Translations under genes and position numbers: made by a program
Source: Escherichia coli
GTDB lineage: Bacteria; Pseudomonadota; Gammaproteobacteria; Enterobacterales; Enterobacteriaceae
Strand: one strand, 5' to 3'
Assembly (NCBI RefSeq): GCF_003334255.1
Contig: NZ_QOWU01000013.1
DNA: 64,000 nucleotides
Notes under the pieces: generated by a model
Seen by the model: only the letters and a program-made list of their open reading frames with translations
What the model was told of the DNA's origin: nothing
Databases searched by the model: none
Shown: piece by piece, positions 2,626-42,539 of the stretch
Layout: every line of letters begins with the position of its first letter
Numbering within the stretch: position 1 is the stretch's first letter

Positions 2626-4176
2626 ATGCCCACTTCTCATGAAAATGCACTGCAACAACGTTGCCAGCAAATTGTCACCAGCCCAGTGCTTAGCCCGGAG
2701 CAGAAGCGCCATTTTCTGGCACTGGAAGCAGAAAACAATCTGCCTTACCCACAGCTTCCTGCCGAAGCCCGCCGCGCGCTGGATGAAGGTGTAATCTGCG
2801 ATATGTTTGAAGGTCATGCGCCGTACAAACCGCGCTATGTCTTACCCGATTACGCCCGTTTTCTGGCGAACGGTTCCGAATGGCTGGAGCTGGAAGGCGC
2901 GAAAGATCTTGATGACGCACTCTCTCTGCTGACCATTCTTTACCACCACGTACCGTCGGTCACATCGATGCCGGTCTACCTGGGGCAACTGGATGCGTTG
3001 TTGCAACCGTATGTTAGAATTCTAACACAAGACGAGATCGATGTTCGAATAAAACGTTTCTGGCGTTACCTCGACAGAACCCTGCCAGACGCCTTTATGC
3101 ACGCCAATATCGGCCCGTCTGATTCGCCCATTACCCGCGCGATCTTACGTGCAGATGCAGAGTTGAAGCAGGTTTCACCGAACCTGACCTTTATCTACGA
3201 TCCTGAAATCACCCCTGATGACCTGCTGCTGGAAGTGGCGAAGAACATCTGTGAATGTAGCAAACCGCACATCGCCAACGGTCCGGTGCATGATAAAATT
3301 TTCACAAAAGGGGGCTACGGGATTGTGAGCTGTTACAACTCACTGCCGCTGGCGGGTGGTGGCAGCACGCTGGTACGCCTTAACCTGAAAGCCATTGCCG
3401 AGCGCAGCGAATCGCTGGATGACTTCTTTACGCGCACTCTACCGCACTACTGCCAGCAGCAGATCGCCATCATCGATGCGCGGTGTGAATTCCTCTATCA
3501 ACAATCACACTTCTTTGAGAATAGCTTCCTGGTGAAAGAAGGGCTGATTAACCCTGAACGTTTTGTGCCAATGTTTGGCATGTATGGGCTGGCGGAAGCG
3601 GTTAACTTGCTGTGTGAAAAAGAAGGGATTGCCGCGCGCTACGGTAAAGAAGCCGCCGCAAATGAAGTAGGTTATCGCATCAGCGCGCAACTGGCGGAGT
3701 TTGTCGCCAATACCCCCGTGAAATATGGCTGGCAAAAACGCGCCATGTTACACGCACAGTCGGGGATCAGTTCCGATATCGGCACCACGCCGGGCGCGCG
3801 TTTGCCGTATGGCGATGAGCCAGATCCGATCACCCATCTGCAAACTGTCGCCCCGCATCATGCTTATTATTATTCCGGCATCAGCGACATTCTGACGCTC
3901 GACGAAACCATCAAACGTAACCCGCAGGCACTGGTACAGCTTTGCCTCGGTGCCTTTAAAGCCGGAATGCGTGAATTTACCGCCAATGTCAGCGGTAACG
4001 ATCTGGTTCGCGTTACCGGTTATATGGTGCGTTTGTCGGATTTAGAAAAATATCGCGCCGAAGGTTCACGCACCAACACCACCTGGCTGGGCGAAGAAGC
4101 CGCACGCAACACTCGTATTCTGGAACGCCAGCCGCGCGTGATAAGCCATGAACAGCAGATGCGCTTTAGTCAGTAA
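2626..4176 (+). CDS. yjjI: Glycyl-radical enzyme family protein, function unknown
   Basis: 516-aa ORF with a C-terminal glycyl-radical-like motif ([12 protein letters not shown]); AAGGAAAAG ribosome-binding site before the ATG; followed by the activase gene yjjW. Confidence 0.85.
3012..3027 (-). promoter_or_regulatory. DeoR operator O1 (deo P1 promoter), inside the yjjI coding sequence
   Basis: Perfect 16-bp palindrome tgttagaattctaaca exactly 599 bp from O2, the canonical O1-O2 spacing. Confidence 0.7.
3291..3306 (-). promoter_or_regulatory. Candidate DeoR upstream operator OE
   Basis: tgataaaattttcaca, a degenerate operator-like palindrome (about 12/16 match) 279 bp beyond O1, fitting the reported roughly 278-bp OE position. 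Confidence 0.4.
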
Positions 4177-5011
4177 GATTATCCCCTTCTCCTGCGTTGA
4201 CGGGCCAGGCAGTCGTCTGGCTCTGTTTTTGCAGGGCTGCAATCTGCGCTGCAAAAACTGTCACAATCCGTGGACGATGGGACGTTGCAATGACTGTGGG
4301 GAGTGCGTGCCACAGTGTCCGCATCAGGCGTTGCAGATTGTTGACGGCAAAGTGGTGTGGAACGCTGTGGTTTGCGAGCAGTGTGATACCTGCCTGAAGA
4401 GGTGTCCGCAACATGCCACGCCCATGGCGCAATCCATGAGCGTGGACGAAGTGCTTAGCCATGTCCGCAAAGCAGTGCTGTTTATCGAAGGGATAACGGT
4501 GAGTGGCGGTGAAGCCACGACCCAGCTGCCGTTTGTGGTGGCGCTGTTTACTGCTATCAAAAACGATCCGCAACTGCGCCATCTCACCTGTCTGGTGGAC
4601 AGTAACGGCATGTTGAGCGAAACCGGCTGGGAAAAATTGCTCCCGGTGTGCGACGGCGCAATGCTCGATCTCAAAGCGTGGGGGAGCGAATGTCATCAAC
4701 AACTCACCGGACGCGATAATCAGCAGATTAAGCGCAGCATCTATTTGCTGGCAGAGCGCGGCAAGCTGGCGGAACTGCGTTTGCTGGTGATCCCTGGCCA
4801 GGTGGATTATTTGCAACACATCGAAGAACTGGCGGCGTTTATCAAGGGACTCGGCGATGTTCCGGTACGCCTGAACGCGTTTCATGCCCACGGCGTGTAT
4901 GGCGAGGCGCAAAGCTGGGCGAGCGCCACGCCGGAAGACGTTGAGCCGTTGGCTGATGCGTTAAAGGTGCGCGGGGTGAGCCGGTTGATATTTCCGGCGC
5001 TCTATTTGTGA
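4148..5011 (+). CDS. yjjW: Glycyl-radical enzyme activating protein (radical SAM, with extra ferredoxin-like Cys clusters)
   Basis: 287 aa; radical SAM motif CNLRCKNC near the N-terminus plus [12 protein letters not shown] and [12 protein letters not shown] clusters; start overlaps the yjjI 3' end by 29 nt. Confidence 0.85.
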
Positions 5012-5012
5012 C

Positions 5013-5436
5013 ATGCCGGATACGGCCTACGGTTCGGCACAGACTTGTAGGCCTGATAAGACGCGTCAAGCGTCGCATCAGGCATTGTGCGCCAACTGCC
5101 GGATGCGGCGCGAACGCCTTATCCGGCCTACGGTTCGGCACAAACCTGTAGGCATGATAAGACGCGACAAGCGTCGCATCAGGCATTATGCGCCGACTGC
5201 CGGATGCGGCGTGAACGCCTTATCCGGCCTACGGTTCGGCACAGACTTGTAGGCATGATAAGACGCGACAAGCGTCGCATCAGGCATTGTGCGCCAACTG
5301 CCGGATGCGGCGTGAACGCCTTATCCGGCCTACGGTTCGGCACAAACCTGTAGGCATGATAAGACGCGTTAAGCGTCGCATCAGGCATTGTGCGCCAACT
5401 GCCGGATGCGGCGTGAACGCCTTATCCGGCCTACGG
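5013..5436. repeat. BIME/REP tandem array, about 101-bp unit x 4 plus a partial unit
   Basis: gccggatgcggcg recurs at 5098, 5199, 5300 and 5401 (period 101 bp); each unit holds two inverted REP copies; ORFs predicted here on both strands are repeat artefacts. Confidence 0.8.
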
Positions 5437-6210
5437 CACGTTAAACAACGTATACGTGTTATTAAGCAACGCTTGCGCAATCTCATCCGCCGGTTCCCGG
5501 CGCAACTCGCAAAGCACGGCAAACACACGGGCAGCCTGCTCCGGGCGGTTAGGCTGCCCCTGAAAACCGTTGAGCGGCATATCCGGCGCGTCGGTTTCCA
5601 GCAATAACGATGCCAGCGGTAATTTTGCGATGACATCGCGGGTTTTACTGGCGCGTGGATAGGTGATAGTACCGCCTACGCCAATTTTGTAGCCCAGCTG
5701 TACAAACCGTTCGGCCTGTTGCAGGCTGCCGGAAAAACCGTGAACCACGCCAGTGCGCGGTAAATCGTGGCGTTTAAGATGCATCGCCAGTTTGTCGTGC
5801 GTGCGCCGTGAATGCAGGATCACCGGCAGATCGTAGCGTTTCGCCAGTTTCAGTTGTTCGTCGAGTAACCACTGCTGCCTCTCAAATTGCGGATCGTCGC
5901 CAAAGAGATCCAGACCGATCTCCCCCACCGCCACCACCTTCGCCGGACGCCTTTCCAGCGCCTGCTGTAGCTGCTCAAGAGACACATCGCTATGTTTTTC
6001 CAACATACCAGGATGCAAGCCCAATGCGGCATACAGCGGTTGATAATTTTCCGCTAATGCCAACACACGGGCAAAATTTTCCGCCTCTGTTGCCGGAACA
6101 ATGATCTTGCCTACGCCCGCTTGTGCCGCGCGTTGCAGGCTGGCCTCTTCATCGCCACTAAACGGCGGGAAATCAAAATGGCAGTGGGTGTCGATAAAAC
6201 GGCAAATCAA
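5431..6210 (-). CDS. yjjV: TatD-family metal-dependent DNase
   Basis: 259 aa; N-terminus MICRFIDTHCHFDFPPF carries the TatD-type HxH metal-binding motif; K-12 synteny. Confidence 0.85.
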   Translation of the reverse strand: MICRFIDTHCHFDFPPFSGDEEASLQRAAQAGVGKIIVPATEAENFARVLALAENYQPLYAALGLHPGMLEKHSDVSLEQLQQALERRPAKVVAVGEIGLDLFGDDPQFERQQWLLDEQLKLAKRYDLPVILHSRRTHDKLAMHLKRHDLPRTGVVHGFSGSLQQAERFVQLGYKIGVGGTITYPRASKTRDVIAKLPLASLLLETDAPDMPLNGFQGQPNRPEQAARVFAVLCELRREPADEIAQALLNNTYTLFNVP

Positions 6211-13022: not shown

Positions 13023-13040
13023 TTATCTCGCCGAATACCG

Positions 13041-13133
<93 letters not shown>

Positions 13134-13220
13134 ATCTGCCCCCGCATGCATACCAAACCTGCACGCTAGTTTCCTGATGGACATTTTTCCAGCAATTACA
13201 CCTCTGTCGATAATTAACTA

Positions 13221-13289: not shown

Positions 13290-13376
13290 GCGAAGGTGGC
13301 GGAATTGGTAGACGCGCTAGCTTCAGGTGTTAGTGTCCTTACGGACGTGGGGGTTCAAGTCCCCCCCCTCGCACCA
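13290..13376 (+). tRNA. leuV: tRNA-Leu (anticodon CAG), single copy
   Basis: 87-nt sequence GCGAAGGTGGCGGAATTGGTAGACGCGCTAGCTTCAGGTG...CCTCGCACCA with CAG anticodon, long variable arm and encoded CCA. Confidence 0.95.
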
Positions 13377-40086: not shown

Positions 40087-40109
40087 GTATTTAGCGCGGT
40101 GCGGATGTG

Positions 40110-40190
40110 CGCCAACACACCCGCACCGCTCATCACAATCACTATTTATGGAGAATAGTAATCATGACTGACACGCATTCTATTGCACAA
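40110..40190 (-). ncRNA. symR: Candidate SymR antisense sRNA (coordinates approximate)
   Basis: Placed by established knowledge that a roughly 77-nt antisense RNA overlaps the symE 5' UTR and start; an inverted repeat gcggtgcgg...ccgcaccgc (40095-40129) lies at the predicted 3' end. Not independently detectable from sequence alone. Confidence 0.3.
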
Positions 40191-42414: not shown

Positions 42415-42512
42415 GCCGGATGCCATGTGAACGCCTTACCAAGTCTACAAAATCTTTAAAGTTCAATATAGTGAATGGGTTATGTAGACCTGATAAGCGT
42501 AGCACATCAGGC
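42415..42512. repeat. REP-like palindromic elements downstream of yjiR
   Basis: gccggatgccatgtgaacgccttaccaagtctac and inverted tgtagacctgataagcgtagcacatcaggc. Confidence 0.5.
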
Positions 42513-42539
42513 TGCTTTGCGTTTGTCATCAGTCTCTGA

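Follow-up and report, generated by a model that had tools for sequence, protein, structure and literature searches.

What REP/BIME arrays do is an old and unsettled question, the candidates being protection of mRNA 3' ends, termination, stalling of translation, and recruitment of gyrase. The subject here is a run of 101-bp repeats lying between the 3' ends of yjjW and yjjV in a 64,000-nucleotide stretch of an Escherichia coli genome (contig NZ_QOWU01000013.1 of assembly GCF_003334255.1; the whole stretch is called the window below).

Anatomy and identity of the array

Tandem Repeats Finder (TRF) reports a single array at 5023-5436 (period 101, 4.1 copies, 95% matches, 0% indels, score 751), and a second repeat search recovered the 101-nt register. 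The whole element covers 5014-5436 and consists of a truncated Y REP followed by four 101-bp units. A first-pass annotation had described at least four head-to-tail units with few substitutions at 5013-5436, and both statements hold: the span agrees when the deleted left Y REP is included, and any two of the four full units are unlike at only 3-7 of their 101 positions. A 202-bp higher-order period, hinted at by the repeat search, was rejected, there being no clean two-unit duplication (units 1 and 3 differ at 3 positions, and units 2 and 4, 2 and 3, and 3 and 4 at 4 each). The position between yjjW and yjjV, also given by the first-pass annotation, is one on which the open reading frames and the annotation agree, the names of the flanking genes having been assigned by BLAST against 5,426 complete E. 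coli genomes. The array sits between the stop codons of the convergent yjjW (+) and yjjV (-), a location of the kind that BIME-2 elements occupy. The features are as follows.

4148-5011, + strand: yjjW (glycyl-radical enzyme activase), 287-aa ORF and annotation; its 3' end abuts the array
5014-5436, no strand: whole BIME-2 array (REP352a-h), from TRF, identity to MG1655, and a 2024 preprint
5014-5030, + strand: left-edge Y REP with an 18-nt internal deletion (TGCCGGATA^CGGCCTAC), 2 nt past the yjjW stop; read from the sequence
5047-5084, - strand: Z2 REP 1, inverted; 35/37 to published Z2
5097-5131, + strand: Y REP 1; 33/35 to published Y
5148-5185, - strand: Z2 REP 2, inverted; 34/37 to Z2; hairpin -15.2 (+) and -14.7 (-) kcal/mol
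5198-5232, + strand: Y REP 2; 34/35 to Y; hairpin -21.3 (+) and -20.9 (-) kcal/mol
5249-5286, - strand: Z2 REP 3, inverted; 34/37 to Z2
5299-5333, + strand: Y REP 3; 34/35 to Y
5350-5387, - strand: Z2 REP 4, inverted; 33/37 to Z2
5400-5434, + strand: Y REP 4; 34/35 to Y; its CTAC tail gives the TAG stop of yjjV (5431-5433, - strand)
5050-5128, 5151-5229, 5252-5330, and 5353-5431, - strand: two-hairpin units matching Rfam RF02564 (naRNA4) by covariance model
5431-6210, - strand: yjjV (metal-dependent hydrolase), 259-aa ORF and annotation; its 3' end overlaps the last REP

On the + strand, the unit runs in the order Y REP, 16-nt linker, inverted Z2 REP, 12-nt linker. The Y-type REP reads TGCCGGATGCGGCGTGAACGCCTTATCCGGCCTAC, the tail-to-tail linker of 16 nt GGTTCGGCACA(G/A)AC(T/C)T, the inverted Z2-type REP GTAGGC(A/C)TGATAAGACGCG..AAGCGTCGCATCAGGCA, and the head-to-head linker of 12 nt TT(G/A)TGCGCC(A/G)AC. 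The earlier description of two inverted REPs per unit is correct, each unit having one forward Y and one inverted Z2, and the array comprises eight complete REPs (four forward Y, four inverted Z2) and a ninth that is internally deleted. Compared with reference Y and Z2 sequences taken from a published methods section, the forward copies agree at 33-34 of 35 positions and the inverted copies at 33-35 of 37, and the Y copies fit the published consensus GCCGGATGCGGCGTGAACGCCTTATCCGGCCTAC. All have the defining form of a REP (an imperfect palindrome of 30-40 nt with a GTAG/CTAC foot and a mismatch or bulge in the stem); across 27 distinct units the GTAG at columns 1-4 is invariant and the CTAC nearly invariant. 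Only the first Z2 REP (5047-5057) keeps ATCAGGCCTAC, the natural target of bridge-RNA-guided IS621, and the other three Z2 copies read ATCATGCCTAC.

Two classes of composite element have to be considered. According to Ton-Hoang 2012 (PMC3333891), BIME-2 combines z2 with y REPs over short linkers and is repeated several times in tandem, the copies at one locus being well conserved and their number there dependent on the strain, and BIME-1 consists of z1 and y with a long L linker, often with an IHF site. Every feature that can be read at the sequence level is that of BIME-2 (Y/Z2 alternation, short linkers of 16 and 12 nt, tandem copies, strain-variable number), and the inverted Y/Z2 arrangement, the extragenic position at gene 3' ends, and the tandem form are those of the family described by Gilson, Bachellier, and Hofnung. 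Nothing essential differs from the canonical element; the left-most Y REP has its 18-nt internal deletion, and three of the four Z2 copies carry an A-G mismatch (GGCATG) where canonical Z2 has GGCCTG. BIME-1, although likewise an arrangement of inverted REP pairs at gene 3' ends, is a single-copy combination of Z1 and Y around an IHF-binding L linker; it is excluded here by inverted REPs with the extra inner stem of Z2 (38 versus 30 nt), the short linkers, the tandem copies, and the lack of an IHF consensus, WATCARNNNNTTR being absent from 5012-5436. The first-pass statement that such arrays are targets of gyrase, IHF, and REP-associated transposases can therefore be kept only in part: the literature ties BIME-2 to gyrase and to TnpA-REP, but IHF belongs with the L linker of BIME-1.

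With Y and inverted Z2 REPs alternating over short linkers between the convergent 3' ends of yjjW and yjjV, the array is very probably a canonical BIME-2, the one listed in EcoCyc as REP352. The array corresponds, in reverse complement, to the region around 4,614,260-4,614,680 of E. coli K-12 MG1655 and agrees with it at every base. A 2024 preprint, citing EcoCyc, names it REP352a-h, notes a 2-nt overlap with yjjV, and counts REP352 as one of eight large K-12 REP clusters (with REP31, 32, 161, 245, 299, 321, and 325). The array is thus the already catalogued REP352 of E. coli K-12, with nothing new for K-12. Across 4700-5750, the sole mismatch to MG1655 is at position 5521, inside yjjV (A here, G in MG1655), and NZ_CP033092.2, labelled as the E. 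coli type strain, is 100% identical to the window over the same interval.

The regularity of the array, which the first-pass annotation had called unusual, is not so. REP325 in the same genome (K-12, yjdM-yjdN) is likewise made of Y + Z2 units and has a period of 100 rather than 101 bp, 5.8 copies, and 96% rather than 95% matches, and published work treats such regularity at one locus as normal. REP325 differs in lying between co-directional rather than convergent genes, in having 5.8 units versus 4.1, and in the sequence of both linkers. REPIN-RAYT systems, in which a domesticated Y1 transposase moves REP doublets, offer a further comparison: their doublet of inverted REPs is also about 100 bp long with a GTAG tag and a stem mismatch (needed by TnpA-REP in vitro), but REPINs are usually dispersed doublets, whereas the array has tandem copies at one locus with locus-specific linkers. 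A RAREFAN analysis in the 2024 preprint did not class REP352 as RAYT-associated.

Copy number and age of the site

The strain survey used two 400-bp flanks only as the query; these matched 5,424 of the 5,426 genomes, and both flanks joined in one place in 5,390. Units were counted in 60 genomes spread evenly down the ranking of the 5,424, and the frequencies are rough because the sample is rank-spaced and RefSeq is biased towards clones.

0 units, insert of about 38-39 nt: 5 of the 60 genomes
1 unit, insert of 121-122 nt: 10 genomes
2 units, insert of 222 nt: 11 genomes
3 units, insert of 323 nt: 5 genomes
4 units, insert of 423-425 nt: 9 genomes
5 units, insert of 524-525 nt: 19 genomes

The first-pass annotation had stated that the size of such arrays differs between strains, with a comparison of unit number among E. 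coli genomes as the check, and the range of 0-5 units in the 60 sampled genomes bears this out. The classes were confirmed base by base in ten alleles. Every sampled K-12 derivative has 4 units, while O157:H7 has 2, HS has 1, and ZH193 has 5. The truncated left Y REP is present in every examined allele with at least one unit; an allele with 0 units carries one complete Y REP there instead, and such alleles recur on different flank backgrounds. In the 60th sampled genome, IAI39, the array is interrupted by IS1397. This IS3-family element (NC_011750.1, locus 3401-4952) lies in the loop of the first full Y REP, between ...GCGGCGTGAA and TAAACGCC..., and IS1397 has been reported to target REP loops.

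The sites that vary (the tail-to-tail and head-to-head linkers, in two forms each, and the Z2 loop, in several) are distributed as a mosaic among unit positions across strains, as expected from unequal exchange or slippage between units. The 50-mer spanning the tail-to-tail junction occurs 1-6 times per genome (median 2), a count that approximates the unit number of one array and so indicates that the unit was amplified in place rather than repeatedly imported. The frequency of 0- and 1-unit alleles (15 of the 60 sampled genomes) argues that array length is weakly constrained at most and shows that a long array can be dispensed with.

Beyond E. coli, a YjjW scan of species-representative genomes yielded 51 loci, and the convergent order of yjjW and yjjV is kept in all of them. 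The gap is 0-21 nt long and free of REPs in Kosakonia, Enterobacter, Phytobacter, Superficieibacter, and Yokenella; it holds a gene for a 425-aa membrane protein in Kluyvera, Pseudocitrobacter, and their relatives; and it contains one or two REPs in most Citrobacter species and in Salmonella arizonae. The sequence TGCCGGATG, 1-3 nt past the yjjW stop, is common to Escherichia, Citrobacter, and Salmonella arizonae, from which it follows that REP occupancy of the site is old; the comparison shows that a REP was already at this site before Escherichia, Citrobacter, and Salmonella diverged. The membrane protein gene, found in Kluyvera cryocrescens (locus L039, 3359-4636, - strand) and at about 15 other loci whose gap is about 1430 nt, encodes a multi-pass protein and overlaps the yjjW stop by a few bases. 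One contig labelled Chryseobacterium sp. 18061 (L052) carries yjjW and yjjV of the Enterobacteriaceae type (71% and 75% identity to the E. coli proteins) and is probably contamination or a mislabelled assembly.

Within Escherichia, E. albertii has a single copy of the 101-bp unit, strain E1V33 has 2.1 copies, E. whittamii has 3.9, and Escherichia sp. MOD1-EC7003 (locus L016, 3230-4352) has 10.9, with 11 Y and 11 Z2 REPs extending over 1,124 nt; this last array is far longer than any sampled E. coli allele. Two Citrobacter species have the yjjW-yjjV gap filled by a BIME array with an 84-bp period (5.1 copies in C. portucalensis, L028, 2542-3013; 5.7 in C. youngae ATCC 29220, L032, 3362-3848). 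These arrays resemble the one in the window in occupying the orthologous gap with 5.1-5.7 tandem units at 93-96% matches, but differ in period (84 versus 101), in linkers, and in composition, with a Z1-like REP forward and a Y-like REP inverted. Since the unit is different, the Citrobacter expansion looks independent, which suggests that some sites are predisposed to array growth. In Citrobacter koseri (L033, about 3344-3513) there is an odd amplification of a partial REP, in which a 38-bp unit comprising the REP's 3' half and a linker stands in 3.1 tandem copies.

Gene ends, folding, and candidate functions

At both of its ends the array is close to a stop codon. The truncated Y REP lies within 3 nt of the yjjW stop. 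At the other end, yjjV has two C-terminal forms, each occurring in more than one Escherichia species. In the first (E. albertii, O157:H7, and 5-unit alleles), a protein of 260 aa ends in ...NV(R/S)G at a stop codon of its own, beyond which come a spacer and a truncated REP. In the second, which includes K-12, the protein has 259 aa and ends in ...NV(P/L/S) (...NVP in the K-12 type), and a complete Y REP fused to the gene donates, with its CTAC(G/A)G tail, the final codon and the TAG (window 5431-5436). Because the REP tail supplies the stop, the hairpin begins 0 nt past it. Papers citing Liang et al. 2015 credit that study with the finding that REPs at most 15 nt from a stop codon stall ribosomes and lower translation, and REP352 is counted among the REPs within this limit in the 2024 preprint.

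On either strand, the local hairpins have energies of about -21 (Y) and -15 (Z2) kcal/mol, and 95.5% of cells are paired in the two hairpins across the 27 distinct units, with internal bubbles present. The relatedness and inverted order of Y and Z2 make the entire array (5005-5445) a quasi-palindrome, and its minimum-energy fold is one giant hairpin on each strand (-242 and -240 kcal/mol, z-scores -12.5 and -12.0); each strand thus folds 12 standard deviations better than shuffled sequences, which excludes chance. Variation among the 27 distinct units, drawn from 12 alleles, is found mostly in linkers, loops, and bubbles (variable columns: 16 of 37 among the unpaired versus 9 of 48 among the paired; Fisher p = 0.017), the stems being more conserved. 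In a covariation test of the two hairpins over these units, no pair had changed on both sides and shuffles equalled the observed value, the stems being too invariant. Neither a sigma-70-like promoter nor a U-tract terminator was found in the yjjW-yjjV gap. In the 2024 mobilome preprint, REP352 was enriched, as were the seven other large REP clusters, in DNA that resists exonuclease, a result for which its authors saw no cause in the sequence; a possible explanation is that long inverted-repeat arrays snap back intramolecularly after alkaline lysis.

The likeliest role of the array would be that of a bidirectional 3'-end hairpin block combined with a gyrase site, amplified in place. Read-through transcripts of yjjW and of yjjV would finish in stacked hairpins, which would keep out 3'-to-5' exonucleases and curb transcription into the opposing gene, and the duplex array would serve as a site of gyrase binding and cleavage where converging transcription piles up positive supercoils. 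Growth and shrinkage would take place at the locus by replication slippage or unequal recombination between units, possibly aided by the REP-associated transposase TnpA-REP, and the exact number of units would be under little constraint. The functional steps draw on work with other REP elements. A 2026 preprint describes REP325 as a partly Rho-dependent terminator and mRNA stabilizer, reports that REPs between convergent genes accompany higher expression of both genes, and finds that REPs do not uniformly prolong mRNA half-lives genome-wide; in its supplements, the one mention of yjjW is in a differential-expression table that does not bear on the array. BIME-2 elements hold more than their share of gyrase cleavage sites, which lie chiefly in y REPs and do not depend on transcription, and BIME-2 sites are mostly located at the borders of supercoiling regions. 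The supplement of Sutormin et al. 2019 has no yjjV or yjjW entry, and the lone coordinate match (4614667) belongs to another strain's numbering.

The array could also be purely selfish or neutral repeat DNA, settled in a harmless spot between two 3' ends and drifting in length by slippage, and this is a substantial possibility, if short of probable. The wide copy-number polymorphism, the 0-unit alleles repeated on different flanks, the IS1397 insertion tolerated in IAI39, the mosaic shuffling of variant sites among units, and the distant genera that do with a gap of 0-21 nt all speak for this reading, which is plausible and agrees with the mechanism of array growth proposed above. Against it, REPs persist at the site across three genera, large arrays arose there at least twice, the stems are more conserved than the loops and linkers, and effects on expression have been shown experimentally for other REPs.

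Rather unlikely, though worth weighing, is that the array is maintained chiefly as a topological device at the DNA level, a strong, transcription-independent gyrase site and supercoil barrier between the converging units. The gyrase cleavage signal at BIME-2 rises rather than falls when transcription is blocked, 70-77% of BIME-2 sites are placed by the literature between supercoiling regions, the convergent-gene position fits, and in two Citrobacter species another kind of BIME array grew independently in this gap. However, cleavage sites are found on only a subset of BIME-2 elements, and healthy isolates carry anything from 0 to 5 copies.

A bolder view, improbable as it stands, takes the gap for a recurrently expanding REP site whose unit number is a heritable dial on two converging operons. 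It is left open because growth to large arrays took place separately in Escherichia (101-bp unit, up to 10.9 copies) and in Citrobacter (84-bp unit), and because the K-12-type last REP replaced the end of yjjV and supplies its stop. If it were true, yjjV would be under REP-dependent control by ribosome stalling (Liang et al. 2015), and the series of 0-to-5-unit alleles would reflect selection on expression level rather than drift. The copy-number series, the stop codon donated by a REP, and the parallel arrays of Citrobacter are useful as details without being surprising. Together with the two yjjV ends, the allelic series at one convergent gene pair (0-5 units in E. coli, about 11 in a sister species) offers a dose-graded test bed for the functions proposed for REP arrays.

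The weakest rival, given a re-examination in 2026, is a cluster of naRNA4-like genes, in which yjjV read-through would be processed into four RNAs, each with two hairpins and about 79 nt long, that bind HU, bridge DNA cruciforms, and condense the nucleoid; it is very doubtful, and the function of naRNA4 is itself disputed. On the - strand, which is the sense strand of yjjV, the four units score 75.4-80.4 bits against RF02564, above the gathering score of 59.5 (the + strand, at 53-58 bits, is below it), and HU binding and DNA condensation by the naRNA4 of REP325 were reported by Qian et al. 2015, both hairpins (Y and Z2) being required. The array matches because RF02564 was built on the Y-Z2 units of REP325; in effect the model describes one Y-Z2 unit of BIME-2, and a match therefore restates the repeat family. 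REP325 is also above the gathering score, but at 95-111 bits versus the 75-80 of the array, whose linker differs. The 2026 preprint, co-authored by Adhya, an author of the 2015 study, found REP325 deletion and overexpression to be without effect on nucleoid volume and saw no REP-REP contacts in Hi-C, and strains without any unit at the yjjW-yjjV site are common.

Spurious reading frames and other elements of the window

The array is overlapped by ORFs on both strands, nine in all and 30-118 aa long. The first-pass annotation had called them spurious, and the curated K-12 record and the PGAP-annotated genomes examined agree, with no CDS annotated for any of them. That they encode real small proteins (e.g., the 88-aa ORF at 5087-5353, + strand, or the 69-aa ORF at 5179-5388, - strand) is next to inconceivable, although all nine have start codons: a period of 101, not being divisible by 3, puts every unit in another frame, the ORFs overlap each other on both strands, their length shifts with each copy-number allele until they are gone in the 0-unit allele, and no promoter-like site was found. 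Coding was rejected on frame, polymorphism, and annotation.

A REP search of the 64-kb window found the yjjW-yjjV array to be its only multi-unit array, REPs elsewhere occurring as pairs or singletons. The four other sites (about 1498-1579, 13038-13135, 42484-42516, and 59078-59109) comprise one Y + Z1 pair, one Y + Z2 pair, and two lone Z1-like REPs, none of which is above the naRNA4 gathering score. The Y + Z2 pair is a single BIME-2-like unit and adjoins a tRNA at 13290-13373. The window also contains an Rfam match to the SymR antitoxin RNA at 40093-40169 (- strand), which scores 95.3 bits against a gathering score of 61.
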